NCBI GenBank assembly: GCA_001724265.1
Contig: MEDY01000704.1
Location: 1 to 43,239 of the forward strand
Direction of reading: 5' to 3'
DNA: 43,239 bases
From: Rhizaria sp. SCN 62-66
Taxonomy: Eukaryota
Shown: piece by piece, positions 12,001 through 43,239 of the stretch
Layout: every line of letters begins with the position of its first letter
Numbering within the stretch: position 1 is the stretch's first letter
Translations under genes and position numbers: made by a program
Notes under the pieces: model-generated
Database searches by the model: none
What the model saw: the letters and a program-made list of their open reading frames with translations, nothing else
Told to the model about the DNA's origin: nothing

Positions 12001-15000
12001 GCGGGATAGGCCCGATGTCAACACTATGCAGCGTTGTCAGCGCCGTGGAAGTTGATGCGTCAACCAGCGTAAAGCATGATGCAGGGACCAAACTTGTAGC
12101 CGCGTATGCTGTCTTGTGAACGGCACTCATAGTGTACGCCGCCTCGATTTGGAAGCCAACGAACTTGGGCTGCGCAGGCATGCACGTCGCAGGCATCGAC
12201 ATCTGGTCAAAGCCGCTGCTGTAGCGACTCGCACAAGTCCCCGTTGCGAGACTGTTGACCAGTGTTACGGTTTTGCCCGTCGTGAAAACACCACAGTTGC
12301 TCTGTAGCACAACGTTATACGCGCTTAGCACGCTTGTGTGCGGGAACAAGTAAAAGTGAATCTTGGCAGTCAGGTCCGTACTGGCCCATGCAATCTCGGT
12401 CAAGACAGTGGTGAACTCAAAAGGTGGGCTATACGTGAGAGGCGCACCAAGTGATGAGCCAGCAAACGCGGACACCGTCGTAGAGACAGTTGCGGCGGTG
12501 GCATACGTAGTTGCGATGGTGAAACTAAACTCCGACGCCGTGAACGAGGTCTTCTCATACGCGATGGTAAAAAGGCCAGTATAAAAAGAGACGTACATCG
12601 CAGGTGTCAAAGAAGACGAACACTTTACGCTTCCCTTAGCAAAGCTGGAGCAACTGCTCGACAAACCCACTGAACTTGATGAAGTCATTTCAGACGATGC
12701 ACTATACGAATATGTGACAGTTACAGACGAAATGCGTTTAAAGAAAAACACGCGCACAAAGTAGTTCTGCACCGAAGAGCCTGTGACAGCAGGCGCAGTT
12801 GTGTTGGCGCCGGTGACTGTCGCAGTCGTAACGCGCGTCAGGTAGAGCGCCGCCACAGCACTCGGCGGCGAGTCAGAGGCGGAGATCGTGTCGTCGGACA
12901 TGTCTGTGTTTTGCTGCGGCACACTGACGCCAGAGACTGTACCAAGCGCACCTTGTGCTGTGCTGTAAGTCTTGAACATCGCCAGATAGTATGCGTACGT
13001 TGTGGTCACAGGGCCAAAACGGAACACGCGCGGCGCGTAGTAGTTACCCGAGCCACTCACCGTTCCGCAGCCGCTTACGGTCACCGTGGTTGGGTTGGTG
13101 TAGCTGACCGTGCATGTGACTTTTGTGAGCCCGGTACCGGCCGTGTAGGATGTGATAGCGAATGTGCTACTCGTCATGACAGCGCTCGGCGCGATACCAC
13201 TTTGCATTGTCAGCGTGAATCCCCAGCCGTTCGAAAGCGCTGAGTGGGCGTAAACGATTACTTCGTATTCAAGTTTAACAGGAGCCGCGGTGTGTGGCAT
13301 ATCGCTGAGACTAATGTCAGAACCAAGACTCGCACGCACAGGATAGAACACAAAATCGACCTGGCGCGTGTAGGCAGACACGGGTTGCGCTATGCTGACA
13401 GCACGGGGATACGTTCCGACGCTAAAACATGCTAGATCGAGTGAATACCGAGCTGTGTTGGTCACGTCAAATGTGATCGACGTCGCCGTGCCAGTCGTAA
13501 CACGATAATCGCCCGATGCGGTGATAGAACTCGAGGCTGTAACAAGCGAAATATCAGTACATGATGACAAAACGGTGTACGCGATGACGTTGGCGATAGG
13601 ATTTGTAGCGTAAAAGTAGATGCGCATGTTAACTTGAAGCGTGCGTGATGTTGCCAGCACAGAGCCCTGGATTAGCACACGGCTGATCGGCGTCATATGC
13701 CAGAAGTACGCCGCAGTGCCAGAGGCACGGATAACAAGGTGGTCGGTCGCAGAAACGCCCGTGGTGATGGACGGCGAGGTCAGCTTAAGCGCATCTTTGT
13801 TGATCCAATAAGGATCGTTTGCAATCACACGCGAAGCTGCGTTGGAAAAAACAACACGCATGTTGGTCACAGTACAGTAAATCATTGAACCGGCAAGCGT
13901 GTACGCCGATGCAGCAATGATAAGCTGGGTACTAGAAGAACTGGAGAAGTAACACGAACCGCCTGTGACCACAGAGGCTGATGAGAAGTCAAACGAAGTC
14001 AACGCTGTGGTGAAGGTGAGCAGAGCGCCCGCATTAAGCACTTCGCCGACTTCGATGTTGAATGTGCCGCTGAAGGTTGAGACGACCATGTCATAGTTGC
14101 TCGGCTCTGGTGTGAGCACAAGCGAAATCGGTGAATATGAGTACGTCATCGTGCGCATGATGGCGACAATGGGCGCCGACAGCGACGTCGCAAGAGTGAC
14201 TGGCACGCCTGACGTCGCCTGGGATGTGAGGTGGATCATCAGGCAGTAGCCCTGGATTGTGGGCGTAGGAGAGCTCATCGGCGACTGCACGTTCGTGATG
14301 TTAACCTGAAACGCGCTGGATCCTAGACTTGCACCTGCGGCGCAAGAAAAGACGAAACGCGTTGTGGCAGCCGAGACTGTGTAGCAGCCCGAGTTGGTGA
14401 TCGCGGAGGTCGCAGAAAAGAGGACGGGCGAGCTGTCGCAGAATCGAATGGTGCCACGAACACCCTCGACATAATCAAATAGCGACGCGACGCCAGCGCC
14501 ATACCACGTTGTAAATGAGGTTGTGAGGAGACTGTTTGATCCCGAAGTGCCGGTGCGCAAGCTGCCAACAACGTCAAACTGCAACTGTGCGGGCGTGTAC
14601 ACGCGAGAAGCCGCGCGGTAATTGCCGCATCCAAAGAAGTCGTTGTAGGTATAAACATCGTACGTATAGTAGGTCGAAGGCCTGGCCGAGACAATCAGTG
14701 TTGATGAGGAAAAAGTTGGTAGGGTGCTGGTCGCTGAGGCGAGAAACCGGAGCGTGAGCGAGTTCGAAGGATCATGATTGAAGAACGAATAGCCGAGATT
14801 GAGCCTAAATACATACTCTGTGTTGCTGCGCTTCTCGAGCAGTGATATCGAGTAAATTGGTGCCTCGTTGTACTCGGTGAGAGGACTACTAAATGGGATA
14901 AACCCATTCCCCACGGCAAGATAAGAAAGGGCAGTAACGATTGCGCCAGATGATGTTGTAATATCAATTTCAACGTCAACGATGCTTGGATAGTACGTGT

Positions 15001-16177
15001 AGGTACCGGAAGAACTGATGTGCCCGCTCTTAATCGTTGCCAGCGAGCGCGCGTTCATGTTGCGCATGCTGACTTCGAGAACGAACGAAGTTTCAGAGCC
15101 TGTGCGCGGCGATCCGATACTCATTATAGCAACAGAAAGCTGGAAAGGATCATACATCGGGAGCGGATTTGCAGCAACGCTTGCGTATGAGACTCCGAAT
15201 TTGTACAGCGAAGTAACTGATGCAGTGTGGTAGGCGGCGAACCGTGAGTCGAAGGTGCAGCCTGCTTTGGTGAAATTATCGGTCGTTCCATAGCCCCCAC
15301 CAACGAAGGAAGTCCACATTGTGTCTGAGTGTGAGAGCGAATATGGGCAATTACCGATGCTCAGGCCAGTGGGGAAGCAGATATAATCGCAAGAGCCCAT
15401 GTAGACTGTGGCTGTTAAGCAGGGCTCAGTCACCCAGTAGTATGTGCTGCCCGAGAACAGCGCCCATGTGCCCTCAAAGGTGAAGTAGACGCAGTTCGTA
15501 CACGAAACAGAGATCAAGTGCTCAGCAGCGTAATAGTTGTAGGAATCCACGACGCCGTTGTACCTATACACAACTTGAGACACGACGCGGGAACCATGTA
15601 CGTAGCCGCCGTTCACAGCTTGTAGCTGCGCATCAAAGGAAGAGGCACCCTGCTGATGCGGCAAGGCCGCGGGGGTGAACGCACCGGCGTGAGGGCTGCG
15701 GCCGCTGACACGGGCGTGATGATGAGTACTGTCACCGCTGGTGCTTTTGTTGCTGTGGTGCTGCTGCACGCGGAGGCGTGCAAAGCGCTCGCCATCAGCG
15801 GCATGCACGCGTTCCACATGGAGAGCGACCGCCTGCTCGGGGGTCTCGAACGGCATGCCAGGGGTACGGGGCGGCGGAAGACCATTGAGCGGGTCGCCGA
15901 GCGCAAGTGCCAGCGCTTGCCAAAGGCTCGGCGGCAAGTAAGCTGGGTTCTTGTACAAGAGGCCTCGCGTCGTTACGTTTTGCGTCAGACGGTTGACAAA
16001 GGCCAGGTACATGTAGATACGCGGCAAGGAGCTCAGGTTGAACGGGAAAGTTGTTGACAGCGCAGATGGCGGCTGAAGGGCTGCGGTCGCGGCGACAGCT
16101 TCGAGGGCAACAATGAAGATCAGAAGCACTGCTGCGGACGCGATGAACGCACGCATGGCGCGTCCGGCCACGCGCAT
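1..16177 (-). CDS. Giant intronless secreted/cell-surface beta-rich multidomain protein, at least 5,392 aa, 3'-partial (runs off the left edge)
   Basis: First ATG after an in-frame TAA (16220-16222) is at 16177 (alternative ATG 16156): MRVAGRAMRAFIASAAVLLIFIVALEAVAATAALQPP..., a hydrophobic signal-peptide-like start. Long stretches translated by hand read as a Thr/Ser/Val/Ala-rich protein, and the frame at the edge (...DWRFTVSLDPVAAEITTLAIDVLPNNATGPNPSCGFRLITGEL) is the same as at the ATG. The ORF track lists no closed minus-strand ORF in this frame anywhere in 1-16177, which implies no stop before the edge. Confidence 0.93.
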   Translation of the reverse strand, partial: MRVAGRAMRAFIASAAVLLIFIVALEAVAATAALQPPSALSTTFPFNLSSLPRIYMYLAFVNRLTQNVTTRGLLYKNPAYLPPSLWQALALALGDPLNGLPPPRTPGMPFETPEQAVALHVERVHAADGERFARLRVQQHHSNKSTSGDSTHHHARVSGRSPHAGAFTPAALPHQQGASSFDAQLQAVNGGYVHGSRVVSQVVYRYNGVVDSYNYYAAEHLISVSCTNCVYFTFEGTWALFSGSTYYWVTEPCLTATVYMGSCDYICFPTGLSIGNCPYSLSHSDTMWTSFVGGGYGTTDNFTKAGCTFDSRFAAYHTASVTSLYKFGVSYASVAANPLPMYDPFQLSVAIMSIGSPRTGSETSFVLEVSMRNMNARSLATIKSGHISSSGTYTYYPSIVDVEIDITTSSGAIVTALSYLAVGNGFIPFSSPLTEYNEAPIYSISLLEKRSNTEYVFRLNLGYSFFNHDPSNSLTLRFLASATSTLPTFSSSTLIVSARPSTYYTYDVYTYNDFFGCGNYRAASRVYTPAQLQFDVVGSLRTGTSGSNSLLTTSFTTWYGAGVASLFDYVEGVRGTIRFCDSSPVLFSATSAITNSGCYTVSAATTRFVFSCAAGASLGSSAFQVNITNVQSPMSSPTPTIQGYCLMIHLTSQATSGVPVTLATSLSAPIVAIMRTMTYSYSPISLVLTPEPSNYDMVVSTFSGTFNIEVGEVLNAGALLTFTTALTSFDFSSASVVTGGSCYFSSSSSTQLIIAASAYTLAGSMIYCTVTNMRVVFSNAASRVIANDPYWINKDALKLTSPSITTGVSATDHLVIRASGTAAYFWHMTPISRVLIQGSVLATSRTLQVNMRIYFYATNPIANVIAYTVLSSCTDISLVTASSSITASGDYRVTTGTATSITFDVTNTARYSLDLACFSVGTYPRAVSIAQPVSAYTRQVDFVFYPVRASLGSDISLSDMPHTAAPVKLEYEVIVYAHSALSNGWGFTLTMQSGIAPSAVMTSSTFAITSYTAGTGLTKVTCTVSYTNPTTVTVSGCGTVSGSGNYYAPRVFRFGPVTTTYAYYLAMFKTYSTAQGALGTVSGVSVPQQNTDMSDDTISASDSPPSAVAALYLTRVTTATVTGANTTAPAVTGSSVQNYFVRVFFFKRISSVTVTYSYSASSEMTSSSSVGLSSSCSSFAKGSVKCSSSLTPAMYVSFYTGLFTIAYEKTSFTASEFSFTIATTYATAATVSTTVSAFAGSSLGAPLTYSPPFEFTTVLTEIAWASTDLTAKIHFYLFPHTSVLSAYNVVLQSNCGVFTTGKTVTLVNSLATGTCASRYSSGFDQMSMPATCMPAQPKFVGFQIEAAYTMSAVHKTAYAATSLVPASCFTLVDASTSTALTTLHSVDIGPIPPPNAFMYDLSMVRSSSSSLQHARADIRTVLMVPISATSVKVIVTVSNSTAGNCPAGLTVTSTTFYTLGSSCTRTSASGSELVATCTGGPWGNKDVFAFGFDYINFPTTVNNIEETPYLGPGCISVKMAYDAFTLTGIPMTPVWSRPLLTAELERTLSSDATQGATHHLSLDLGDEKFVATTNDFSFIALLRDFSGLTFYSHTGFVTTSKIDWKVASPASGAVEFGPSAPTSAVGVCLPTAPCTVRIPVTATFAGTVPLFTSVSVYVKETSTGLTRPYATAPVRMPAGIIQQQLAPPAMPFSATAFTVTATAASPLLRTFSITLFDTTTLNTAALQYWVVQLPLTGFTYASAKYTLKVGAGSASTAVSVPAEGEITIPKISTMVNVSVVMTVTSVTVTLVETPELVTVALEHYSMRNTLTANATRLNRAVSLGYGALQQDTRATYTISSNTFAAGLRPVYATADCAMVLTETRYRMKCSVAWTGLVDITPSMTLALVTRDASPHTTPTGVRLESATRTSPTLGSTPCTPATTGAAIALTNCLANGYSALTLEVIISAVSFLVEQQLEIELRSGTARRAVAQVRPPLGVIELTGVDPVFTFASPTSHNGLLVMKPVLSYYANTISSALYAEVEILGGRFGTRFVAGASKTTTSVTFNSCAVECELNNVIFPNISTSLLCPISSCSLPASGQLTVSVTSGFVPGPTTEERAMLRLSITATVVGPGDRRVLYSGLFTAPRGTLTGGDTSTGTDTVTAGTVARTAVHTLTPAPTLCSGGDIVLDSGEYFRLTPPLSARTNMAWEALAAAQYTWSSPDLAASGTTAVSLTATVSSKQRWIILRPQTEGRAYCFGARQPNLIATLPIVIPVMASESFIVEILSRGGLVRYRHLARLSSLPDTELPAVLTLSTRAQGDYSAVGYVKINITDLTVAQVNEARFSLTMGSACNYFPAVGTKTLGFSDNVVLVSNPSSASLYKTPVVDALEFSITATAIPVVAYVPGVYCSSSADTAVTLATHFGTSAAVVMSKTATLPVAAPIPATQIALYAMHLNGKFATVAGAMRPPVEGIAGYAFSDKFDISFAIISSLGIPAGYYLSLIVPWVTTATFSVSVLDSAHTTITNVVQTLVPAERRVSLQFTKGWPANSQMIIVRSGSSVDSTVTSREVTAKITMNLDSMTNNILEQGTSIVPLRSDWYQALTSSVTVVPTALGSGYARGVSLTVNFRAPAATFIAVSPNPLSVLLVLFPTITVASDPVHESAKFFFSNAGSTTLQCGTLAVKTLATSRKFERYASALSADGTTVTYAPGFRIELEYQAAAVNDNCVLTVTHLHASNVYYRDALTLVTTATVTLLSGASATVLNNFYYSTATAAVTTTGLLKTNDLPTPWAQILPLAPLSMNSTSSLRFLSAGNELSVMGPQAFFYTASTTVSNDPGFAGLGDVFSLASRLQIKTVPTSATAMCFSLPVGTNSSATTITLYIEGQSTSSPTSIAANATVCPSGLRDVLASFDAISFTANTAARSDAQRAVLPTQCVCTNTAALPTTLKQADSVMTIVIPGVSFMPSLPAEAIESLRMSPLTMIAPVANVEGTMEAVVAPAMTIGAIPPRNRIFPRGFHIGNPLTPFTDLAQVTAAAAAPSMSLMYAVASDGLYVAEPTVSVSATTPTPYVSPQISTLAAWKKIASVASGRVSLAVAPDDTTVVLNSDNKQLTIIETSYDDTISTATIPFSSIDKQPLYPYRNAHQAPLFTPIILGWQERTSFAASAATATVVLPVGGALHVFSFTAEGQSKFLRTEYPIGENSTITAVASSATALAFVVCGSIPNAAGAQCVTVKQALGAVTFTTSARITIDSRVGVVVTAADLCPAGYNGLALDACFFAAVQNTDAEAPASTIYRISLGSTIAVTRAAVVPGIQVVDLKLTSFANQIILLRNNPNLIPLSSVAIAVLSRISDSWMYEAGGDLSSIFLTLPSTSTVPSQRNLPMLVASADRESFIVAAGNAAQWRSFKALPVLNNVVALSPTSSAITVQFSRASTSHKVLFASNTFTLTLTLTGSLYNGSTLIQTLRSSSGVNDVSVSLPLTTAAPWYVADSLSPYSAALAFGVHPASTGVKDVELSSHLRMVTMLPNIAGFIATSDVMLPEKTWFGGVVPTLVGSYIADPMFGRGKTTTWRVWFTSPDALHTAATWTLALRYATVAQQTAVIRATNANWTLSVTCTPGFVGKVSCAASASAVTNVATGTPLLLRLDLEVTLIASADLLTTSSTGSNPYSLMTMTRGALTVPTQPYSYVRPAVNPAGYFGYSHRAPLGAHLPSRGPGQVSWYANSEDALCYTFARDFSGCYRFTHRSNVITGDWIATRNTAAAPDPAMASAYGPQGTLVSLVTATRTGSKVSAMRFTAPDPTTGPLAANVLQSFVDLPFDSNMFYFRLGASGVAHMYVVSSAELTGGLVIVYNDAYEVVMLVRMNPRTMRASGTDNVLTSELYKRMDTPIQFSGNAVGDRIVATFDWTAPTSLTNTSQPTTRVVFVYASGLMRACVANIRESSAAANRATASFTADTVRFSCAQADGASTYWVTNSDGTVLTPTSAAFAVSDGVAYIGTEQNVIVAVKLSSSTGVVTITVNHVPSLSTVCPIAALAVHPSGRVISLACADSGTLVNVRVLHGEDLTRYILRANQTAGCMVHVSAEPSRDLTQADRINLHSESIDAYRYFTYDAGLRSVVSMAYAPHGTHLAVMGTTSVSTSNTVQFLRMAEEMTTTFSPSKLGGGVLANWTFTFAFESFAYPTLPVCTVWGPQSTSFANVTSVTITTTPATTTRTVTAITQLAHKLTFVGTAAMTATSGTWEVIVLNVINPIMNVTQEFQASIACSHQVTPQDPGNTLWSADNMAPVWNGPVLPTGLQTVAVTSVPTPITADSYPWSLTLMTLASGSPVSLTYLPPFSRSPLALQDAVKIGKSQVYRVRVRFQDGSAAPCVVGEGNAAVVTIASRTGISTTFMLSCSAATTYDNPIVVELTPWVGTLASGYAAALSTTLTKPVRVTPTYYLTATVRVGSTVNTEPESYPAGADTDVILHFNVPMTEDTSYTLSFSTTSGTCRFYNAVTGDGPTTKLIGSIALPGDLERIDDNGIVIGRMRCSVPYSPGVTINMVIPSDKGFVGDTMPVRPIVGTVFVRPTMTYALEFSIGANNPPIELAVLAQPAFSTRSAVKMELLRNGLPLSVPCSLLASSSSTAAKVRTLTVQLTSTTYAAINCYESVAPTDNIALSVTYPNNDGSYDVITTNYITAWLISTVRMLTVMPTGVETPTSLPIFTPFYIEFDTEVRVERYTTNIFQHSAGGDACAFAPVSSLTKLLHIKNDDEYRALITEGVLSEQMTDRVNLISTNTQRHALLAICSTAAVAVGTSIDFTLTRVGDSYIYPARLSHHASVVQVLFTPKAAVYDAARTPNTLGETPMSEVAPHEYFIDTLPLSLTLEWVLPTERANSVTVSVYMLDSAPCYFNDNINATSVSTTLLPEDAESGSLVFTVVCTVMRYSEQFATRITDDSTGAVIAQWTALQVRITGRITLTAALPALDTADASTIDLTESTSVVEFPRAVTVPMTLTFRPALVDSGVFGLSFTNPSANCVFKASSTSAADTDTKDFSLAVGVEQVTFSITCAQPASDPPRISALFTEDSKVYYDRFESSGLQTKGELQLMINNKTTASYLSFVVRETYTIIGQFVPTPTVLQSVSITQITTPADCVFLLNNGATLYTSEPVFKQTSLTEPFYARMICRRTHGVGSIFSITSDVYTGETIGPTPVWGLIGMDFFVPTNIVGANREITDLTSRELFSTEAVASGADELPAPYILRAPATNTTQVRVRVIPSVLAMTIVYVTFTKTNGLCGFTTYSDSGIVTFAYTAQLTYAVGDAQKDIYVSCSVTNSEPVYLHAELAAGNYLLPAISLPLKVRGSIKFTTDGVEPRMAFNGDLVANRDWRFTVSLDPVAAEITTLAIDVLPNNATGPNPSCGFRLITGEL

Positions 16178-16873
16178 ACAATTGATAGGCGATACTAAAG
16201 TGGCGGACAGTGTGGATTTTTAAGGGCACGCTGGGTGTGTGCCTTGTCAAGAGTTTAACAACAACAAGCTAGCGGAGGCGGGACCAGGTGAGGGAGCAGC
16301 GAGCTAAACGACGCCTTAAATGGGGTAAATGAATATTCCAAGAAACAAATGGGATAAAAATGTGAAATTAATAGCAGATAAAGTGGCCTTCGGTCTACAC
16401 AAATGCTGAAAAGTGAATATTCATGCTGTTAATATCGCGACAAAGCGACACTTGAGTGAGAACTGGCTGGTCTGCCCCATGGTAATTTCTTATCGAAGAT
16501 AAAATCGCCTGATGATTTGCAAGCACAATAAAGCATCATAACATAATGTAACTCGGACTGTTTCATCCACTTTGAGTGCAGTTATGAAGCGCAAATTGCG
16601 TTTTGTGGGGAAAACGAGTGCCGCAATAATTCTCCTCGATCGACGTCCTCCTTTCGGTTAAGACGATCTCACAGCTGATGCAGTGAAGTCCACAGTTAAG
16701 CTGCGCAACTGCAATGAACATTATATGTTGGTATGTTAGAAATTCTGAACATCCCAAGCCTCAAATCGAGATGACATTGATATCCTGGCTCGATCTCAAC
16801 ATAATCACTCTCTCGTCCCAACCCCAGGACCAAGCCGACCACTATGACCGCAAACTCTTTCCGTGGGCCGCCG

Positions 16874-16909
<36 letters not shown>
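16874..16909. repeat. Poly-C/poly-G homopolymer (~36 nt)
   Basis: Directly visible C run ~700 bp upstream of the giant ORF start. Confidence 0.95.
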
Positions 16910-17022
16910 AGTCAACTTGAAAAACAACTCGGCCCGCACAGAACGAATGATTTTTCTTTAAAACTCAGTAAAACACCCGTTATATATGCTATTGTCACAT
17001 TAAAACACTTGAATTAAACAGT

Positions 17023-18690
17023 TTATTCCTCGTATGGAATGGTTTCTTTCTTCTGAATTGTGTTATTAGGCGCCGCAGCACGAGCTTGGACTATCACCCT
17101 GCGTTCGAAGCGGTGGGTTCTTTCGTTCCTCCAAAAGGTCGTCATCGTAGCGGAATAAATCACGGTATGCTCGCTCGCTGAACGCTCCAATTTAATGCGG
17201 CGCTGTACAATAGCAAAGGATGCGTTACAGAGGTCGTGGGGCAATCCTGACATCACGTTTTGATCAACAAAACGAGAGGACCAACGATGCAAAAGAATGC
17301 CGGTGTTTTGAGCGTTCGGCGCTCGCATAGGGAAGCCAATGTCCTGGATAAGGTTTGACATAAGAGCAAAGCCAGCAGTGTAGAAGCAGAGGGGCCACTG
17401 GACAGGGGTTCGGCCATCGTGAGTCTAAGCTTGGCGAAAGAAGAGCCGCCAGTGGTGGGGATGTGATTACTGGTTGCCAGGTTGAGAGTGGCATTTACCA
17501 ATGTCATCACGCTCGCATCGCGCTATTCAGGCAGGCAAGCTCGATATCAATGCCACCACAAAGAGCATATCGAGATGCGCGCGAGATGCTTTGAGCACAG
17601 GTTGATTCAAGAGAGATGAACAAGATGATCGTGGGAGAAATTGGGCAAGCTGTACACCAGCAGCGGAGTAAGCAACTGTGACGCACGACATTTTACATTT
17701 AAAAAAGCATGTGAGACGGTGACTAAGACGGCCCGCGGTGTATTCCCCTCGCTGTGTCCAAAGGTGGTGTTTCTGTTTCTGTGTTCAAAAGTGGTGTTTC
17801 TTGTGTAAATGATCAGCATTTTAATGCATATAATTCGAATTATATGCTGATAACAATACTTTAAACACAGAAAACACTACACTTTAAACACAGAATCCTT
17901 CTGTGTGTGTTCACAGAAAACACCACCCTTGTATCCGGAGCTTGGTAGGTCGTTGGGTGCCGTTTCTCTGTGGTTCCTGTGAGAGAGTCCCTTTATGTAA
18001 AATGTCGCGCGTAACAGCAACCTCATTTGGCACGCTTCTTGAAGACTTTGCCGCATCGCTGTGGTTCGATAGTTCCGAGTGTAAGTGTAAACCGCGGATG
18101 AAAACCCGATGAAGGTCGCCCCAACAAAGGTTGCGTTCATGATAGAGATAGGGCTTACAAGCAGTGAGAGGGAATCGATATTCTGCAGCTCTGCGATATG
18201 CTGTTGTGATCAGTCTGGAGAGCGGGACCCGAACACCCGAAGAAAGATCTGATGCAAAATCTTGAGTACAGTACTGCATGTATGACTCCTTGTACTAGGA
18301 GCGGTGGATGCTTTCTTGCTTGTTCGGGCTAAGTGCGAGAGCAAAAAGAGCTGGTAGAGCTTCAAGCAGGCTCTTCAAACGACTAAATAGCAAACGGGAA
18401 CAACTGGCGCGTTCAAGTAACAAAAAAGCGCATGTGTACTCAAGAAGGCGTTGATAACGCTCTCAGAGGTGGGAGCTATCGCGTTCATGCAAACGTCTTC
18501 GCTGAGTCAAGCGGTCAGAATAAAAGAAGTGATATCTCTTGCAAAACATGCTTGATGACGAGACATGTTGTAATAACTGATAAAACCTATATGGTAAAAT
18601 CCAAGAAAATGAATACAGCTCGTTTGACGGTGAATTCATGGACCAAGGTTCGTGGCAAAAACGGAAGAGACTAGAGACCCCAGCTACTGC
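17023..18690 (-). pseudogene. Possible decayed coding sequence of unknown family, interrupted by the 17677-18016 element
   Basis: Several overlapping short minus-strand ORFs in a moderately GC-rich block. The frame ...SRSVPNEV continues as EVAYSAAGVQLAQF when the element and one TSD copy are removed. No recognisable motif. Confidence 0.25.
17677..18016. mobile_element. 340-bp palindromic non-autonomous element (MITE-like), subfamily A, TGT...ACA ends, 5-bp TSD GCAAC
   Basis: Left end TGTGACGCACGACATTTTACAT vs reverse complement of right end TGTTACGCGCGACATTTTACAT. GCAAC at 17672-17676 and 18017-18021. Internal inverted GGTGGTGTTTC/GAAAACACCACC motifs and a central perfect palindrome GCATATAATTCGAATTATATGC (17826-17847). 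Confidence 0.9.
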
Positions 18691-19133
18691 CACATCGGCC
18701 CAGCAACTGCGTAACCAAAAGGCAAATCACGCGAGCCACCTTATGACAAATGAAGCCATCAAATTCCTTATTGCATTATATGCTATGCCAACTGTGCTCC
18801 AAGCTTAAAAATTGATTTTTTTTTATGGGTGTGTTGACTGTCACGACAATATCCTTAGTTTTGTTCAAGTTCATATCTGAAACTGACTTATAAAAAGCTA
18901 ATAGACGATGGCAAAGGAACTATAAATACAATATATAAAAGCAACTAACATGTTTAAATCCCTGAATAAGATTAACAAAGACAGGAAATAACTTAAGATC
19001 TTCGAAAACGACTTTCCTCCTTCACATTGCCAAAACTAGCTATAGATCTCTATACGTACATTAAATTTTGCAGTTTCAAAATCAGAAGCGCTCTAGCAGT
19101 GTTTTCTTTTTCATATCGTCAGTTGACTAAGTA

Positions 19134-19206
19134 GTGGCTTTAGCTCAGATGGTAGAGTATGCGCTTAGCATGCGCGGGGCAGGGGGATCAATGCCCCCAA
19201 GCTACA
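19134..19206 (+). tRNA. tRNA-Ala (AGC)
   Basis: Cloverleaf folded by hand: acceptor GTGGCTT/AAGCTAC with G3:U70, anticodon arm TGCGC-TTAGCAT-GCGCG, T-arm GGGGG-ATCAATG-CCCCC. T-run (Pol III terminator) just downstream. Confidence 0.93.
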
Positions 19207-19294
19207 CACACTTTTTTTTGTTACTCTTTGCCTTCCTCTTATTCTTTGCCTCCCTCAAGTAGTAGTTTATGAAGTAAGTACTGTAACGACGTCC

Positions 19295-19366
19295 GTGCTA
19301 GTGGCTCAGTGGTAGAGTGTTCCGTTCGCAACGGAAAGGCCCCGGGTTCAAACCCCGGCTAGTACA
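19295..19366 (+). tRNA. tRNA-Ala (CGC)
   Basis: Acceptor GTGCTAG/CTAGTAC with G3:U70, anticodon arm TTCCG-TTCGCAA-CGGAA, T-arm CCGGG-TTCAAAC-CCCGG. T-run downstream. Confidence 0.95.
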
Positions 19367-20503
19367 TACTCTTTTTGTCCTGGCACGCAGCGGGCACTTT
19401 ATTTTTTTGCGCGCACGGATGGCGTGCGCATGATCGACTGCGACGGAGCTTGATGCGTGATTCGTTGATGTCATTTTTGCAAGACTAAACGGCTCGTACC
19501 GAATGGGAGTTGTATGACCCGGAAGACGCGCCTGGGCCTTGTGATGAGGCTGCAGACGATAACGCCGAATAAATTCAAGTCTCAACGTCTCTAAAGACGT
19601 GTCCAAGGCCTCGATTGCAAGAGGTGGGGGAGTTCCTGCCGGAGCCAGTGCGTCACTTCGAACCGCTCGAGCTTAATGAGCTTGAAGAGCAGGGTTAGGA
19701 GGCATATAACGGTTTTAGTGGGTTATAGATCCCCACACTGTTCCAGTCTCCCCAAGAGCCTCATTCGCGTCATTCGCACGTTTCGCCACAATGGGTTCGC
19801 GATATGTATTAATAGTATGGCGGGGTTTCCGGTGTTAGGTCTCCTTCGGCAGGGATTGCGACATAAAATAGCATCTTCACAAAGTATTACAAAGGGTTAA
19901 AGTACAAGAGCAGGTATGAGTTATCATATCAAAAGATTGAATACTTTGACCATTATTTTGTTTAGATCTACAGTATTTTAGGAAGGCCATCCAGGGATCT
20001 CACATTGGTGAACGGCGGAGTAACCATGGTTAAGTATTGAAAACATGCCGCGCCACTTGCTCAGTTCGCGCGAACCGTTGTTCCTCCCACTCGATTTCTT
20101 TGACTTCACCGCCTGACTGCGCTTCGCTGCTCGCAGCGCCAAACAAAAACTGCGCGAACGTACTCGTATTGCTGAGCTTGCCGAAGCCAACGCTCGAAAA
20201 GCTCGTAGACTCGAGGCGCTCATTAAACAACCCCACCAATGAACCACATTGCACAATGTTCAGCGGCTTCAGCAAGCGCGAGCTTTTCGAACGATGTCGT
20301 TGAGTTGCGTGACCATCACTGCCCCGCCAACGACACGACCGTCCATCGAGAAAAATTTACGTGTTTATTAAAAATAGTCCCTCTGAACACACAACACTGG
20401 TCGAATGTGCTGCTGACGCGCGTTGAGTGGCGGAGCATGGAGGGTGAAAAATAAAAGCTGCACCCCGGGTTGGAGCAGCGCGTGGACAGACAAAAAAAAA
20501 ATA

Positions 20504-20586
20504 TCCGTCAGGAGTGAATCGAACACCCAACCCGTCGATTTCTATAACTACTACAGTCGACTGCTATACCATTTAGCTACTAACGG
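20504..20586 (-). tRNA. tRNA-Tyr (GTA) with 11-nt intron, copy 1
   Basis: Reverse complement of 21255-21337. C1-G72 and A73 Tyr identity elements, intron TAGTTATAGAA after position 37, long T-run downstream. Confidence 0.95.
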
Positions 20587-21254
20587 AGAAACCAACTCAT
20601 TTTTGGGAACTGATGGTCCGCGAAATAAAATTTTTGATATAATTCTTTGAATGCAATCGCATCAAAAACGCTACAGTAAGATCAAGCACATCATTAAGTG
20701 GGTGACAGTGGGGAATGTTCAAATATACTGGGAAAAAAAATATCTTAAAGGTATCTGGGGATTGATATATACTAATAAATTCGCTAACATGTGTATACGT
20801 GTCTGAATCCCACTTCATTGGGATTGAGCACTGTTGACCCATACTAGTAACTTCTCTATTTCAATGACGATACTTACTATACTAGTACTATTGGGTCTCA
20901 AGTATTGACAATTCTGAAAGGCGCATCAGAGCTCCTCTGACATGATAAATCAGAAACTGGACTGACATGCTCATCATGCCAGACTTCATCGAGAAAGACT
21001 TGATCTGCATCTTGGAGCTCACCCGTGGGCTGTACTAGTATTCAGTAGTACTAGACTAGTGTAACTACTATTAACCCTCGTGTTAAACGCATTTGTGCAT
21101 GGGAACGTTCAGTTGACAAATTTAATTAGCGCCATGCAGTATTGGAATTCTGAAAATGTGGCCAGGTTACAAGGAGATTTCCTGCTGTGCCAGTATAAGA
21201 ATATAAAATTTTTCATTTACTGCACGTGAAGTCACATGTGTATTCTCATTTTCA

Positions 21255-21337
21255 CCGTTAGTAGCTAAATGGTATAGCAGTCGACTGTAGTAGTTATAGA
21301 AATCGACGGGTTGGGTGTTCGATTCACTCCTGACGGA
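21255..21337 (+). tRNA. tRNA-Tyr (GTA) with 11-nt intron (21291-21301), copy 2
   Basis: CCGTTAG/CTGACGG acceptor, GCTA/TAGC D-stem, GTCGA-CTGTAG[TAGTTATAGAA]A-TCGAC anticodon arm, GGGTG-TTCGATT-CACTC T-arm. TATTCTTTTTT downstream. Confidence 0.95.
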
Positions 21338-21424
21338 TATTCTTTTTTCGCACAGCCTTAATTTTTGGTTCAACGCGCCATGCAGATCCCCATCCATCCG
21401 TTCAACGGCAGTACTTTGTACAAA

Positions 21425-21460
21425 TACATGTAGTACTTAGTACTAGTACGAGTACGCGTA
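21425..21460. repeat. TA-punctuated array TA-CATG-TA-G-TA-CTTAG-TA-CTAG-TA-CGAG-TA-CGCG-TA
   Basis: Read directly from the sequence. Confidence 0.8.
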
Positions 21461-21698
21461 CTCAGAATGTTTTGTGTTCTTTTTTTCGACAAGAACTCGG
21501 ACGAACAGAGGCATTTACTAGTATTAATACTGTACGCAACAGTGTCACGTCGCCAAGGCACGGCAGCAACATTCAGTGAGGCCACAGCGCCAAACCTGTT
21601 GTACGGTTGTGTGTACTGTTGTGTGTACTAGTACTAGTAGTAGAGCCTGTGCGCTAACGTGTTGTCGAAGCAACATGCAGAGCAAGCTCGTCACAGCA

Positions 21699-21744
21699 TA
21701 CTTAGTACTTAGTAGTACTAGTACTAGTACTAGTAATACTAGTA
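21699..21744. repeat. (TACTAG)n-type palindromic tandem array
   Basis: TACTTAGTACTTAGTAGTACTAGTACTAGTACTAGTAATACTAGTA. A shorter array is at 21626-21642. Confidence 0.85.
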
Positions 21745-21874
21745 TTATCAATGATCGGTTTAAAAAAACTCGATTAGCACGTGGTAGTCTTTACTTACTG
21801 TCTTCTGCCTGCTTAGCCTTGGCTTTGTCAATTGCGGCTGACACCAGCTGCAAGTGCTTGTGCAGCGACAGGCT

Positions 21875-22187
21875 CTACTCGTTGAAAATATCATCCCCTG
21901 CAGCTGCCTTAGCAATGAACTTCTGGCTGTGCTGATAGAAGTTGACAAAATGTCATTTTTGAGCTCTTCGATAATGAAGCGCAGCGCCGCAGCGCCCTCA
22001 ATGACCTCTTGACATGTAGGCGGTGACGAATCGCGTTAAAAACGGGCTCATTGGGGTTGAAAGCAGGGGCATACGGTGGGAGGTACTTCCACTGAATATT
22101 ATTTTGCTTCATCACCTTGGTCACCTCTCGTACGAGGGCCGTCTTGTGAAAAGCTACGTTGTCCACCCAAGAAGGCTCATGACGCAA
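21875..22187 (-). pseudogene. Decayed IS630/Tc1-mariner superfamily transposase, C-terminal DDE fragment
   Basis: VDNVAFHK...WKYLPPYAPAFNPNE matches the DN-x3-H...LPPYSPDLNPIE signature of IS630/Tc1 (DDE_3) transposases. After frameshifts it continues as FVNFYQHSQKFIAKAAAGDDIFNE* (stop 21875-21877). No N-terminal HTH region or TIRs found. Confidence 0.85.
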
Positions 22188-22554
22188 GCCACTTATCTAT
22201 TAATCCAAGGTCACGGCATTATGTGTGAGCATGCGATCTACACAGATTTGATGGCGTTTAGCTTGTGAGACAGCGTGCAATGATCACTCACAACAAAGAT
22301 GTGAGGCTTGAGTAATCTGCTTTGCTGGACGTGCTGTCTGTTACTGTACGAATACTTACGGTGGGAAGAAGAGTAACGCGCGAGTGACGCGACGGTATTA
22401 GTAACGAGTGACAAGTGGTACTAGTATTGTTATTAAGCTTATAAGTGATACATGCCCGTTGGTGGCAATGCGGTCGCCGCGACGAAGCTGACGGGACCAA
22501 AAAAGGAGCGCGCCCGAGTGTAGAGAAGCGCCCAAACTAACAAAAAAAAGAATA

Positions 22555-22637
22555 TCCGTCAGGAGTGAATCGAACACCCAACCCGTCGATTTCTATAACT
22601 ACTACAGTCGACTGCTATACCATTTAGCTACTAACGG
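22555..22637 (-). tRNA. tRNA-Tyr (GTA) with 11-nt intron, copy 3
   Basis: Reverse complement of 21255-21337, with the same TATTCTTTTTT 3' flank. Confidence 0.95.
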
Positions 22638-22837
22638 TATTTGAAGTGAAATATACTTGCAAATTACGATGATTATGTGGAAAAAACCTAAATTTCAGCT
22701 ATTAGACTCATCATTCAGATATGTATTATTAGTCAGTACGAGGACATGTACACTTACTGTATAATAGTAGTTCTTCAATAGTATATTAATACTTGTGACA
22801 CCCATAACCCCATCACAATTACACCGCGGTTTCTTCG

Positions 22838-23172
22838 TGTTACAATCGACATTCTGCATAAAATCTCCTTCGGACAGCAAACCATTGTGAAAATCGCCAC
22901 CAAACAATCATGGCCGCCGTAATACTAGTACCAGTATAAAGGTGGTGTTTTCCTGTGTAATATTACACAGATTTCTCTTTTCTGTGAAAATAACAATAAC
23001 AATTCATAATATCAGAGACTCAGTAAATAATTCGAATTATGTACGTACTTGGTTCTTATTGTTTTCATAGAAAAAGAGAGTCTGTCAGTGTTCACACAAT
23101 GAACACCACTTTTATATCGCGGCCGGAAATTGTTGTGTGAAGGAGATTTTATGCAGAATGTCGGCTGTAACA
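22838..23172. mobile_element. 335-bp palindromic MITE-like element, subfamily B, TGT...ACA ends, 5-bp TSD CTTCG
   Basis: TGTTACAATCGACATTCTGCATAAAATCTCCTTC vs reverse complement of right end TGTTACAGCCGACATTCTGCATAAAATCTCCTTC. CTTCG at 22833-22837 and 23173-23177. Arms stay complementary inward to the central ATAATTCGAATTAT (23027-23040). Confidence 0.92.
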
Positions 23173-23661
23173 CTTCGCCTCGCGCTGGTGGTTCTACTAG
23201 TACTTTGATTCTGATAAAATTTGGACGAGTTTCACAGTTTCCCAGGTCACTCTCTCAAGGCAAGCCATGTCGACGACTAAGGCGCGGACCTGTACGTACA
23301 TCATGCGGTGGCCTATCTGTGTAAGCTTACCTACATAAAAAGCAATGTATTAATATTTAAATTTTATGTCATAATGTCCATCAAATCGCCATGTAAACCA
23401 ACTATGAACCTGTCTAAATTGATGAAATATGAATAAATTTAAACTGTGTCACTCAAACTTCATTGGCGGTGACGACGTGATTTCGCGTTTAAAACAGGAT
23501 TTTGTATTGAAATGTGCACACACATGGATAGTTGCATAGGTTGAATTAAGAATTGAGTGTAGTACGAATTTAGCTTAGGTTCTCGCGATATGTTAGTTCC
23601 AAATGCATCTCATTTGGTTACTCTGCTGATTACAGGTTCACTTAATATTACGTACACCCAC

Positions 23662-26106
23662 TTATGCGTTAGTGGAAGCAGCAAGCGCGGCGGCGTTCTC
23701 GGTGTAGATCTCGCGCATCTCCTTGGCGGCCTGGACCATGCGTGCAAGAGCGGGCTCAACCTCGGCCCACTGGCGCGTCTTGAGACCGCAGTCAGGGTTG
23801 GCCCAGATGAGCTCAGGACCAAGCTCGCGTGCGGCGCGCTCCAGAATGGCGCGCATAGCAGCAACGGTGGGCACGTTGGGCGAGTGGATATCGTACACGC
23901 CGGGGCCGATGTGGTTGGGGTAGTGGAAGGTCTCGAAGGCCTCGAGCAGCTCGCCCTGCGAGCGAGACGTCTCGATCGTGATCACGTCGGCGTCGAGCGC
24001 AGCAATAGCTTCGATGATGTCGTTGAACTCGGAGTAGCACATGTGGGTGTGGATCTGGGTCTCGTCGCGGACACCAGCAGCGGCAACGCGGAAGGCGCGC
24101 ACAGCCCACTTCAGGTAGGCCGCACGGTCCGCAGCACGCAGAGGCAGGCCCTCGCGCAGAGTGGGCTCGTCGATCTGGATCACGCTGATCTTGGCGGCCT
24201 CAAGGTCGACGACCTCGTCGCGGACGGCAAGCGCAATCTGCAGGGCCGTCGCGCTACGGGGCTGGTCGTCACGGACAAAGGACCAGGACAAGATGGTGAG
24301 CGGACCTGTGAGCATGCCCTTGACAGGCTTGGTGCTACGGGACTGCGCGTAGCGCGCCCACTCGACGGTCATCGGTGCAGGGCGCGAGACGTCGCCAAAG
24401 ATCACGGGCGGCTTAACGCAGCGGGAGCCGTAGGACTGCACCCAGCCCTGCTGCGTAAAGAGGAAACCGCTGAGAAGCTCACCAAAGTACTCAACCATGT
24501 CGTTGCGCTCGGGCTCGCCGTGAACAAGCACGTCAATACCGGCCTTCTCCTGGCGTGCAATCGCGTCGTCAATCTCGGCGCGCATGCGCGCGTTGTATTC
24601 CTCGGCGCTAAGCGTGCCACGCTTGGCCTGGAGACGCGCGGCGCGGATGGCGGGCGTCTGAGGGAAAGAGCCGATCGTAGTGGTGGGGAAGAGCGGCAGC
24701 TTGAGCACAGCCTGCTGCTTGCGGATGCGCTCGGGGAACGCCGACGCGCGGTTGGCCATAGCCTCAGTTACAGCCGCGGCGCGGGCCTGGACAGCCGCGC
24801 TGTGGATGCGGGGGGACGTCGCGCGGGAGGTGACGGCGGCGGTGCTGGCGGCAATCGCGGCAACGACGGCGGCGTCCTCGGGGCGCGTAATGGTGTCGCG
24901 GAGGAGAGCAACCTCTTCGAGCTTCTGGCGCGCAAACGCGAGCCAGGGGCGCGCCTCAGTGTCGAGCGCGGTCTCGCGGCCGAGGTCAACAGGCGAGTGA
25001 AGCAGCGAGCACGAAGGAGCAACCCACACGCGCGCAGCGCCGAGCTTGGCCACGGCAGCGGCAAGGACCTTGCTCGCGGCGGCGGTGTCGTTGCGCCAGA
25101 TGTTGCGGCCGTCGACGAGACCAAGGGAGAGAATCTTGTCGGTCTGCGCGGCGAACGCGGCGACGACGGAGTCGACCTCGGCAGCGCCACGCACGGCGTC
25201 AAAGTGCACGCCGGCGACGGGCAGCGCGGCAACGAGCTCGAGGTTCTCACGAAGCTCACCAAAGTAGGTAGCCAGAAGCACGCGCGCGTTGGTCGCGGCG
25301 GCAGCGGCAACAATGCGCTCGTAGGTGGGCTTGTAGGCAGCGCGCCAGGCCTCTGGGAGGTCAAGCACGAGAGCGGGCTCGTCGACCTGGATCCACTTGG
25401 CGCCAGCGGCAGCGAGCTCGCTGATCAGCGCCTCGTAGACGGGCAGCAGGCGCGGGAGCAGAGAGAGGCGGTCGAAAGCGGCGCCCTTCTCCTTGCCGAG
25501 CCAGAGGTAGGTGAGCGGGCCCACGACGACAGGCTTGGGCGCGAGGCCCTGCTTGACGGCCTCGGCGGTCTCAGCAACGATCTGGCGCCACGACAGCGCG
25601 AACTCCTGCGTGACGTGGAACTCGGGCACGATGTAGTGGTAGTTGGTGTCGAACCACTTGGTCATGTCACTTGCGGCAGTGGCGCGGCCGGTGGGCGCAC
25701 GGCCACGGGCGACGCGGAAGAGAGTATCCAGGTCGACGTCAGTGCACGGCGCAGCCTCAAACGAGTCGACGTCAGCGCTCGCGCTCTCGCAGCCGGTGCA
25801 GGCCTCGGCCTCGGCAGCGGGCTTCTCAGCGGTGGCGGAGTCGACGGTCTTGCGGTGGCGAAGGGGGATGGCGCCGACAGTGGCGGACATGGTCAGAACC
25901 TGGTCGTACCAGGCGAAGTCACCGGTGGGGACAAAGTCGTGGCCGGCGGTCTTCTGCCACTGCCAATGGCGGGCGCGCAGAGTGGCACCGACCTCATCGA
26001 GCGCGGCAGCGGTGATTTCGCCCTTCCAGTAGGCCTCCTGCGCCTTCTTGAGCTCGCGGTCGCCGCCGATACGGGGGAAACCGAGTGCGTGAGCAGTGAC
26101 GGACAT
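23662..26106 (-). CDS. metE: Cobalamin-independent methionine synthase (5-methyltetrahydropteroyltriglutamate--homocysteine methyltransferase), 814 aa
   Basis: LGFPRIG..RELKKA N-terminus, MTKWFDTNYHY, TTTIGSFPQ, HGEPERNDMV, WVQSYGSRCVKPP, and Zn ligands in HMCYSEF, ITIETSRS and NPDCGLKTR. Uninterrupted ORF. Confidence 0.98.
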   Translation of the reverse strand: MSVTAHALGFPRIGGDRELKKAQEAYWKGEITAAALDEVGATLRARHWQWQKTAGHDFVPTGDFAWYDQVLTMSATVGAIPLRHRKTVDSATAEKPAAEAEACTGCESASADVDSFEAAPCTDVDLDTLFRVARGRAPTGRATAASDMTKWFDTNYHYIVPEFHVTQEFALSWRQIVAETAEAVKQGLAPKPVVVGPLTYLWLGKEKGAAFDRLSLLPRLLPVYEALISELAAAGAKWIQVDEPALVLDLPEAWRAAYKPTYERIVAAAAATNARVLLATYFGELRENLELVAALPVAGVHFDAVRGAAEVDSVVAAFAAQTDKILSLGLVDGRNIWRNDTAAASKVLAAAVAKLGAARVWVAPSCSLLHSPVDLGRETALDTEARPWLAFARQKLEEVALLRDTITRPEDAAVVAAIAASTAAVTSRATSPRIHSAAVQARAAAVTEAMANRASAFPERIRKQQAVLKLPLFPTTTIGSFPQTPAIRAARLQAKRGTLSAEEYNARMRAEIDDAIARQEKAGIDVLVHGEPERNDMVEYFGELLSGFLFTQQGWVQSYGSRCVKPPVIFGDVSRPAPMTVEWARYAQSRSTKPVKGMLTGPLTILSWSFVRDDQPRSATALQIALAVRDEVVDLEAAKISVIQIDEPTLREGLPLRAADRAAYLKWAVRAFRVAAAGVRDETQIHTHMCYSEFNDIIEAIAALDADVITIETSRSQGELLEAFETFHYPNHIGPGVYDIHSPNVPTVAAMRAILERAARELGPELIWANPDCGLKTRQWAEVEPALARMVQAAKEMREIYTENAAALAASTNA

Positions 26107-40877: not shown

Positions 40878-40950
40878 TTCCCACTACGGGACTTGAACCC
40901 GTGTCTCAGCAGTGAGAGTGCCGTATACTAACCACCTATACTAAATGGGA
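40878..40950 (-). tRNA. tRNA-Glu (CTC)
   Basis: TCCCATT/AGTGGGA acceptor, CGGCA-CTCTCAC-TGCTG anticodon arm, ACGGG-TTCAAGT-CCCGT T-arm. T-run follows. Confidence 0.93.
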
Positions 40951-41021
40951 TGTTTGTTGTACACGAGCTCGCTGAAGCTTGTTACTGGATAATATAAGGT
41001 CAAAGAGGAGCAAAAAAAAGG

Positions 41022-41481: not shown

Positions 41482-41515
41482 TACTAGTACTAGTACTAGT
41501 ACTAAAAGTACTAGT
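41482..41515. repeat. (TACTAG)n palindromic tandem array
   Basis: TACTAGTACTAGTACTAGTACTAAAAGTACTAGT. Confidence 0.85.
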
Positions 41516-41789: not shown

Positions 41790-42954
41790 AGACAAGTTAA
41801 GCTGCGTCGTAAATATCTCACGAAACAGACGTTTTTCTTGACAACTGGCCTGATTTTAGGTTATAAGTACCATTATTTTTATAAACTTTCAGTTGATATA
41901 TCTCGCCCAATAGTTCGTTATCAGATCTATTTCTGATAAAATATTATACAGTTACAAATATTCTATTTTATACTAATATGAGAAGCTCATATTTTAAGGA
42001 AAAGACGTTTTAATGTGCGCTAGTAAAAACGGAGCCTTCGTCGTAGTACAAGTTGTTTTGATACTCTTATAATTGATACAAACGTATGAGGAAATAGCTT
42101 ATAACGCCGAGTTTATGGCTGAATTAAATTTAAAGCGCGCTCAATGAGAAGTTGTCTTGGTCCAACACGGTTTTGTCGTGCTTTTTAGGGCAAAAAACTT
42201 GTCACATCAGGTCACTAAAATATGAACTTTTGTTGCATATCCTCGGAGTATATGCTGTTTATCAACAATCAAATATAAAAACTTGATAAACAAAGCTACA
42301 CGTATATTATACTACGTTTTTTTTATTGAAAGACTACGAAAATAGCTGATTTTAACTTAAAACAGTTCGCGATTTTGATGATGCGTTGGGCTGTAGGCGA
42401 ATCAAGAGGGCGCGCGATATGCCAGGACCAGAGCAAGTTGTCACACACACGACATCACGCGCCGCTGTTCCGACATATTTACAGGAGCGCAGCTTTATGA
42501 ACACGCATGAGGCTAAGACGTGAACGATTGATTCTCTGATACACTAGGGTGAGCACTACAGCACACGACAAACTGCGTGATGCGTTCGAGAGACTGCGGG
42601 ACGTAACTGCAAAGTGCCAACAACATAGAAGCAGGTTCTGACTGACTTTGAGTATTATATAAGCTCGAACTTAACGACAACAGCATCCGAGACACTGTTA
42701 CTGCGCGTCACTTGTTGCTGCTGCGGTCACGATCAGAGGCGAGGGCAGAGTGCCCAGCAGATCGGGAGCAGTGCGCGGGCGACTTCGTCAGTGACGGTGT
42801 CGAGGAAAGGCGCTGCGCTCAATGCGGTACCCAGTGGGGCGAGGGGAGTTGCATAGCGGCGTGCAGGCGCGGGACATGGGGCTGACGAAGGAGGCTTCGA
42901 ACGACAACAGCAACGACACGTGATAGTCTGTACTAGTACATCTCGCGCGTAACA

Positions 42955-43140
42955 CTCTTTTCTGTGAAAACAACAATAACAATTTATAATATCAGAGACA
43001 CAGTATATAATTCGAATTATATACTTGGTTCTTATTGTTTTCATAGAAATTGAGAGTCTGTGTTCACAGGAAAACGAAGTGTGTATACACAAGAAATGCC
43101 ACCTTTAAATCGCGGCCGGCAAAAGCTGTCGACTGGAATT
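42955..43140. mobile_element. Truncated/interrupted subfamily-B palindromic MITE (core and right arm)
   Basis: Closely similar to 22975-23150 (CTCTTTTCTGTGAAAA.AACAATAACAATT.ATAATATCAGAGAC.CAGTA...TTGGTTCTTATTGTTTTCATAGAAA...CGCGGCCGG). Central perfect palindrome AGTATATAATTCGAATTATATACT (43002-43025). Confidence 0.85.
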
Positions 43141-43239
43141 TGTTACGCACGAAATTTTACATAAAGGGACTCTCTCACAGGAAATCCACAGAGAAACGGC
43201 ACCCAACGACCTCCTAAGCTCCCTTTATCAGGGTGGTGT
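43141..43239. mobile_element. Start of a subfamily-A palindromic MITE, running off the right edge
   Basis: TGTTACGCACGAAATTTTACATAAAGGGACTCTCTCACAGGAA.TCCACAGAGAAACGGCACCCAACGACCT... closely matches the reverse complement of 17920-18016. Confidence 0.88.

Follow-up and report, generated by a model that had tools for sequence, protein, structure and literature searches.

The 43,239-nucleotide stretch analysed here (the window), which is the whole of contig C704 in the Rhizaria sp. SCN 62-66 assembly (G000; 34.9 Mb, 714 contigs), contains short fold-back repeats, and the question it raises is where these repeats come from. A first-pass annotation attributed them to one family of palindromic miniature elements derived from a Ginger2/Tdd-like or related integrase-type transposon. 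We find that the repeat family is real and well supported. It likely stems from the terminal junction of an undescribed telomere-resolvase virophage, not from a Ginger transposon.

Two complete elements lie on the forward strand of the window. E1 (17677..18016, 340 bp) has 22-bp terminal inverted repeats and is flanked by GCAAC (17672..17676 and 18017..18021); E2 (22838..23172, 335 bp) has 43-bp terminal inverted repeats and is flanked by CTTCG (22833..22837 and 23173..23177). Both start with TGT and finish with ACA, and both 5-bp target duplications are exact, as initially reported. The centre of E1 is a perfect 22-bp palindrome with the core TTCGAA (17826..17847), a candidate telomere-resolvase site, and that of E2 is a perfect 14-bp palindrome (23027..23040). 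The fold-back ascribed to the elements was recovered, with z-scores of -7.6 (E1) and -10.8 (E2) against shuffles, and extends inward, more weakly, past the terminal inverted repeats detected by blastn; proper inverted repeats are limited to the 22 and 43 bp given above.

The end of the window had been described as two partial copies at 42955-43239 and is actually a nest. A 15-bp remnant of an E1-type right end (42940..42954, forward strand) is followed by an E3 body (42955..43140, forward strand), which has a 24-bp perfect palindrome at 43002-43025, and an E1-type copy (43141..43239, reverse strand), cut by the contig end, is inserted at 43141 within the E3 end. The target duplication of this nested copy, GAATT, is at 43136..43140; contig C40 starts with the other E1 end, followed after base 97 by the second GAATT and then by the remainder of the E3 end.

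E1 and E2 gave no match to each other by blastn, and their longest exact common blocks are 14 bp (the central palindrome) and 13 bp (a subterminal motif). Judged on these comparisons they are different subfamilies, and three subfamilies were distinguished: E1 (window 17677), E2 (window 22838) and the abundant E3 (body in the window tail). E2 and E3 are 81% identical, and the E1-E3 alignment contains about 200 identities in 368 columns. They are dispersed non-coding repeats, as first proposed.

DNA nearly identical to the window occurs in wastewater and bioreactor metagenome runs (at least 0.79 of sampled words in 4 of the 14 runs listed), and three metagenome runs showed almost no letters differing from the window in unique DNA. 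In runs X1, X3 and X4, contigs pass from unique flank into E1 at both ends, and summed depth over the elements was about 25-150 times flank depth per bin, a ratio that varies between runs and is not a copy number. Metagenome contigs of four runs over 16500-24000 contained no joint skipping E1 or E2 alone; contigs cannot show that such empty sites are absent.

Genome-wide, exact E2/E3-type ends were found 101 times, compared with once for a reversed control, and exact E1-type ends 59 times, compared with none. The total of at least 160 ends of E1, E2 and E3 type bears out the high copy number that had been suggested. The terminal sequences of the family are TGTTA, TGTCA and TGTGA (TGTNR type). 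Many ends are within 100 bp of a contig end, and the assembly therefore breaks at these repeats.

Target duplications were tabulated across the genome, as the annotation had proposed. An exact 5-bp duplication flanked 17 of the 29 paired copies fetched, where 0.03 were expected from shuffled flanks; five copies had one mismatch and seven had two or more. No exact 4- or 6-bp duplication was found among the 29 copies, duplications up to 10 bp being checked. One of the seven pairs lacking a duplication (L093) is a mis-pairing, the real unit being a 38-bp copy with a GGCCT duplication. Four more short copies (33, 38, 209 and 230 bp), outside the 29-pair count, also have exact 5-bp duplications, and in the 230-bp copy an internal TGTCAC serves as the second end. 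Among 134 unique ends, complementary 5-mers formed 39 pairs versus 12 expected (maximum 22 in 200 shuffles), with no enrichment of 4-mers (28 versus 38.6) or 6-mers (1 versus 3.2). Among paired metagenome copies, 2 of 13 lacked both a duplication and a viral link (L101, L115), and both look chimeric. The combination of TGTNR-type ends and 5-bp duplications points to an integrase-type DDE enzyme, in agreement with the original proposal. The target sites (178 flanks) had no RTATAY preference; their only bias was weak and symmetric, with A/T in the middle. Targeting of tRNA genes was rejected, as a tRNA gene was nearby at only 2 of 57 non-window loci among L001-L060.

Ginger2/Tdd elements are defined by TGTNR termini, a 4-bp target duplication (5 bp in TDD-4/5), terminal inverted repeats of about 50-300 bp and an RTATAY target (PMC2836005, available part). 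The repeats studied here resemble the MITEs of this group (TDD-4, TDD-5, Ginger2-1N1_NV) in their TGTNR termini, inverted repeats, 5-bp duplications and short non-autonomous copies. They differ from them, as far as the available part of that source describes, in their shorter inverted repeats (22-43 bp compared with 50-297 bp), in showing no RTATAY bias and no H2C2-DDE transposase partner in our searches, in having a conserved central palindrome and in sitting within a virophage. Membership of IS481EU (duplications of about 4, 15 or 25 bp) or IS3EU-GingerRoot (6 bp, mostly TA..TA ends) was rejected, since the 5-bp duplication fits neither (PMC10045372, available part).

The Ginger2/Tdd-like parent that had been postulated was not recovered: no long element combining these ends with a transposase was found in the genome or among 52 metagenome loci, and isolated ends at C283, C333, C267 and C5 had no distant partner end. 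Because these searches rank just the top candidates, and no contig encountered was below about 5 kb, a small autonomous element is possible. The rve family occurs at four places in the genome. Two are retrotransposon pol genes (gypsy on C700, copia on C540), and the other two, on C420 and C478, are copies of a decayed integrase. Profile searches of the genome with H2C2 and rve_3 added only retrotransposons, the H2C2 match being confined to the gypsy contig. The decayed integrase family has eight loci, mostly behind a kinase-like, host-type ORF, and was broken in every inspected copy. It was rejected as a partner: a word search gave no relatives, HMMER gave three short fragments, and viral contigs gave none. 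It had no PDB match, and the Atlas result was uninformative. A 68-bp E2 end, pointing away from the integrase, truncates it in C420 and C292, and C292 is the family's sole contact with virus DNA.

The kinase-like ORF and the decayed integrase, which lacks an HHCC motif, form a repeated unit truncated at varying points (C420, C292, C478, C27, C581, C683; L070-L077). A kinase relative (43%) is located close to an E1 end on C645.

Scanning metagenome contigs with the element end pattern gave the 52 loci, six of which (L105, L110, L111, L116, L122, L128) were left out as having one look-alike end and a different interior. Clustering of flanks revealed a recurrent arm, starting GAGGC, that adjoins E2/E3 ends, and tblastn detected virus genes in 6 of the 52 loci (L120, L121, L123, L126, L147, L149). 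L121 carries, in order, a capsid gene (+), arm, E3, arm, and then penton, ATPase, protease and telomere-resolvase genes (all -). The arms mirror each other as inverted copies, and the inverted repeat runs about 145 bp past the TGT and ACA ends, extending the fold-back of the element itself; E3 is therefore the inner 330 bp, about half, of a 640-bp imperfect palindrome. A 661-nt stretch of L121 folds into a single hairpin (z -27), at whose apex lies the central palindrome. The flanks of E3 in L121, GCCTC and GAGGC, are an inverted pair and not a duplication.

The junction has a fixed polarity. End 'a' is capsid-side in L121, L123, L126 and L147; end 'b' is penton-side in L121, L120 and genome contig C561, and in C89 it adjoins a short stretch of this same arm. 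All eight aligned arm/element junctions, including those of C561, C89 and L147, are in register, and the arm/TGT junction itself terminates contigs L123 and L126. The capsids of L147 and L121 are only 67% identical, yet their E3 copies are close. That the two arms meet different ends implies either a single module, in a circular or head-to-tail arrangement, or a pair of modules in direct repeat; a module present as a terminal inverted repeat would not fit. Selection of the loci by the element end pattern means that they are no evidence for an arm that always carries an element, and in L121 and L120 the assembly may have joined separate pieces through the repeat; an unbiased genome search gave one arm-start match (C561). 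Taking this into account, the element is very probably a regular part of the virophage junction. The window copies are related to the virus-borne ones: the E3 body in the tail is 97.3% identical to the copy in L121, E2 is 81% identical to the same copy, and E1 is 94% identical to the E1 copy of L149, which borders penton-side DNA of a virophage.

The virus was characterized from its genes, among which only the L147 capsid and the resolvase exceed Pfam cut-offs. The capsid matches MCP_V20_C (PF22031) with E 2.3e-7 in L147 (above cut-off) and E 1.1e-4 in L123 (below cut-off), and has an Atlas match of 0.97 to Sputnik-type virophage clusters. Below cut-off are the penton V18-19 match (PF21507, E 5e-4), which lies in the expected gene block, and the Peptidase_C48 match of the protease (E 9e-4) beside the penton; the ATPase is a P-loop ORF, also beside the penton, with weak AAA matches (E 0.02). 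The longest virus piece is 4,961 bp of L121, compared with the 15-45 kb of dsDNA by which virophages are recognized, and the contigs examined included neither a complete virophage genome nor an integrase on a virus contig. Criteria for virophages (Maveriviricetes) include a virophage-like major capsid protein, a packaging ATPase and a cysteine protease (PMC9952930, available part), and the linked virus has such a capsid by both the L147 Pfam match and the Atlas match. Eight clusters are related to the capsid gene, all of metagenome-type sources. IMG/VR and prokaryote genomes contained no virophage relatives with capsid, ATPase, capsid alignments or resolvase, and no match to the end pattern; six database matches to the central palindrome were unrelated phage-like contigs and were rejected.

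In L099 and L120, the E3 'a' end is joined to what appears by eye to be the C-terminal part of another virophage's capsid gene, with the same junction in two assemblies; this is possibly one virophage inserted in another.

The resolvase gene product matches PF16684 (ResT-TelK catalytic domain) with E 1.8e-16 over positions 2-179 of the 181 in the model. Four related clusters, 58-99% identical and of metagenome-type sources, all have PF16684, and its profile matched only protelomerase chains in the PDB, weakly (E 0.7). We found no report of a telomere-resolvase virophage, or polinton, in the literature searched, which covered few subscription papers. The words 'resolvase' and 'telomer' are absent from the main text and one supplement each of two virophage surveys (PMC9952930, PMC6905037); a cluster-numbered gene is possible in their other supplements.

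The resolvases of phage N15 and of a phaeovirus work on a 6-bp palindromic core that is embedded in a longer inverted repeat (PMC13236599, available part). Because the architecture of the elements matches such a site, the centre would, by analogy, rather probably be the resolvase site. The 18-bp palindrome ATATAATTC-GAATTATAT is the longest exact block common to E1 and E3, the next being 11 bp, and a centre was recognizable in 29 of 32 paired copies of 280-360 bp. The half-length of the perfect palindrome is 12 (24 bp) in the virus-borne L120, L121 and L147 and 0-11 in the other 27; a half-length of 12 also occurs in two host copies, the window tail E3 and a 538-bp composite in C283. Inside each subfamily, conservation of the centre is no higher than that of the remaining element, and the centre is lost or damaged in 13 of 16 short host copies. 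Three short copies have a common left breakpoint near position 99-100 with different right breakpoints; no deletion with both breakpoints common to two sites was found among the 16. No a-a or b-b copy, which hairpin replication would be expected to produce, was present among 42 paired elements, all being a-b or l-r, and no opposite-strand joint at the element centre was seen among 14 joints (contigs only).

Searching the genome with virus sequence identified seven relic loci of the L121-type lineage, three of which abut an element end or remnant (C561, C199, C292) and four of which do not (C240, C504, C681, C64). C561 has the order penton-arm-element-host and C199 the order protease region-element-host. 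C292 contains the integrase relic, a 68-bp 'a' end and then the resolvase gene, oriented as it is in L121, an arrangement that would be expected if the intervening DNA had been deleted. C89, found from the element side, has the order host-element-arm fragment. Five of the seven paired genome copies without a target duplication abut virus or virus-linked DNA (C561, C89, C199, C457 and C531, two E1 copies before spacer X included), compared with none of the 22 copies with a duplication or one mismatch. In a control of 212 pieces there was no independent virus match, the two matches being X flanks of E1 copies. The start of spacer X is included in 2 of 6 rows, and at both of these genome places it follows the E1 right end directly. 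Spacer X has 38-48 bp in common with the spacer on the capsid side of L147, and in C675 it is continued by 104 bp matching the DNA after the capsid gene in C681. Together with the penton-side junction in L149, where 385 bp separate the other E1 end from the penton gene, these links suggest that E1 probably belongs to another virus variant, the evidence being thinner than for E3. A complete provirus with two modules and a matching target duplication was not seen among these loci. In C681, other genes follow the capsid gene.

Two contigs, C344 and C649, carry a more distant virophage lineage, with a capsid 21-22% identical and no abutting element found. This second endogenous lineage lies at C344:32775-35600 and C649:4902-7634 (MCP_V20_C, E 4e-10), and in C344 a phospholipase A2-like ORF neighbours the capsid. 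Beside the capsid relic of C681 (L212:391-897), an ORF joins a ubiquitin domain to a Peptidase_S74 chaperone domain.

The target duplications, junctions, polarity and gene content described above are direct observations on the contigs. As the repeats form the centre of an inverted-repeat junction in a virophage with a predicted hairpin-telomere enzyme, they are likely to be a combined telomere and insertion module and not ordinary mini-transposons. In full, our preferred reading is that the 330-bp module is a virophage telomere junction with integrase-type ends and that the host repeats are its solo insertions or provirus remnants, which we hold to be about evenly balanced; that the host copies derive from the virus module, and not from a host transposon, is on its own slightly favoured. 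A circular or head-to-tail form of the virus would carry the intact module, like telRL in phage N15 and phaeoviruses, and the predicted resolvase would cut the central palindrome to give a linear, hairpin-ended genome. An rve-like integrase would join the CA-3' ends to host DNA. Use of both ends of one module would leave a solo copy; if instead a head-to-tail dimer were inserted by the outer ends of its two modules, the provirus would have a module at each end, in direct repeat, and might collapse to a solo copy by recombination. Solo LTRs are similarly short TG...CA units with a target duplication, which may remain when a direct-repeat provirus collapses.

An LTR-like life cycle of the DNA itself is an unlikely extension, according to which the resolvase would cut the two palindromes of a direct-repeat provirus with a 5-bp duplication, freeing a hairpin-ended genome and leaving the rejoined halves as a solo module. 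If this were true, the host would carry more than 100 viral telomere sites, recording past integrations and cuttable by the viral enzyme on infection. The exit of virophage proviruses from the chromosome would become testable in this system. More generally, one cis module acting as viral junction centre and dispersed host repeat would tie MITE-like repeats to a viral origin, and solo modules would give a countable record of virophage integration. Such a module would also lend itself to a simple biochemical test with one enzyme and one 24-bp palindrome.

Virophages integrate either via terminal inverted repeats and an rve integrase or via tyrosine recombinases. The virus described here shares virophage morphogenesis genes and endogenous copies in a protist with EMALEs, the endogenous mavirus-like virophages, which have an rve integrase and short target duplications (3-5 bp; 5-6 bp in mavirus) (PMC8547959, available part). 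It differs from them, according to the same part, in its Sputnik-type capsid (Pfam/Atlas), its telomere resolvase and its ends: those of EMALEs are terminal inverted repeats pointing into the virus, whereas here TGT...ACA encloses only a 330-bp module. With the endogenous Ectocarpus phaeoviruses and phage N15, it has in common a telomere resolvase, an inverted-repeat site with a palindromic core and a virus that also integrates (PMC13236599, available part). Unlike here, the phaeovirus is a giant virus integrated by a tyrosine recombinase at CC without a target duplication; its telRL is internal and apart from the attachment site, and the available part of that source describes no dispersed telRL copies.

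A possible but doubtful alternative is that a host MITE was captured: the elements would be non-autonomous Ginger2/Tdd-like transposons, one copy of which entered a virophage long ago. The duplication would have been erased as the arms homogenized, and the host-virus junctions would result from transposase action at the ends of the element, with or without co-option of the central palindrome as a telomere site. TGTNR ends with 5-bp duplications do match TDD-4 and TDD-5 (PMC2836005, available part), and the absence of target preference, the nested insertions, the 33-38-bp copies with intact duplications and the existence of three subfamilies fit a transposon, as does the closeness of E3 in L147 and L121 despite their 67% capsid identity. 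Autonomous copies below about 5 kb may be absent from an assembly that breaks at repeats. Against capture, no autonomous partner was found, the junction register is the same on both arms and across divergent lineages, the centre is conserved between subfamilies that otherwise align poorly, and the 16 short copies include no amplified deletion derivative. If capture were nevertheless correct, this would still be a transposon built into the terminal structure of a virus.

It is improbable that the elements are ordinary MITEs whose contact with virophage DNA is incidental, repeats piling up and short-read assemblies joining unrelated flanks. Most ends are indeed at contig breaks, L103, C649, C89 and C656 are mixtures of several repeats, and L101 and L115 appear chimeric. 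However, chimeras join real junctions, and contigs L123 and L126 stop at the arm/TGT junction itself; the junction is in register in 8 of 8 cases with fixed polarity, and the 212 control pieces gave no independent virus match.

In Tn3 and Tn5053, a cointegrate is resolved at a res site. A resolution-site transposon of this kind is very unlikely here: the module would transpose replicatively from a circular virus, giving a host-module-virus-module-host cointegrate, and a tyrosine-recombinase-like 'resolvase' would recombine the two central palindromes to leave a solo copy, with no hairpin ends. This predicts the direct-repeat polarity, the virus junctions without duplications, the adjacent rearrangements (C199, C292) and the occurrence of only a-b copies, and telomere resolvases do act Cre-like as recombinases under some conditions (PMC13221069, available part). 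On the other hand, the match of the protein to the telomere-resolvase family spans the whole model, and the long inverted arms suit terminal repeats better than a res site.

Finally, solo LTRs of a retrotransposon, suggested by the TG...CA ends, the length of about 330 bp, the 5-bp duplications and the gypsy and copia pol genes in the genome, are hardly credible, as no paired direct copies were found flanking gag-pol, the gypsy contig C700 yielded no element end, the copy on the copia contig C540 is about 4 kb from pol with its own duplication, copies without a duplication abut virophage DNA instead of gag-pol, and here the unit is itself an imperfect palindrome linked to a DNA virus and not to a reverse transcriptase. 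The palindromic structure, first used as an argument against solo LTRs, also fits the solo terminal module of a DNA virus. The gag-pol of the Ty3/gypsy element on C700 has long open frames, and the copia element at C540:1007-4306 is decayed.

Outside the elements, the window contains metE, Nup192/205 and DEAD-box genes. On the reverse strand, an ORF of at least 5,406 codons runs uninterrupted through 2-16219. Its product is rich in T, A, S and V, carries a hydrophobic stretch at the N terminus, has no Pfam match and has the appearance of a giant surface protein. Eight tRNA genes lie at 19134-22637 and 40878-41789; three of them, near-identical and left unassigned by ARAGORN (anticodon region 'gt'), are probably copies of an intron-containing tRNA-Tyr. 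At 21744-22346 there is a decayed multi-copy repeat with a peptide that is DDE_3-like by eye, related copies of which are found beside several element loci. Elsewhere in the genome, a tRNA-like sequence of 85-99 bp is present at C675:740-2995 in five near-identical copies that alternate in orientation.
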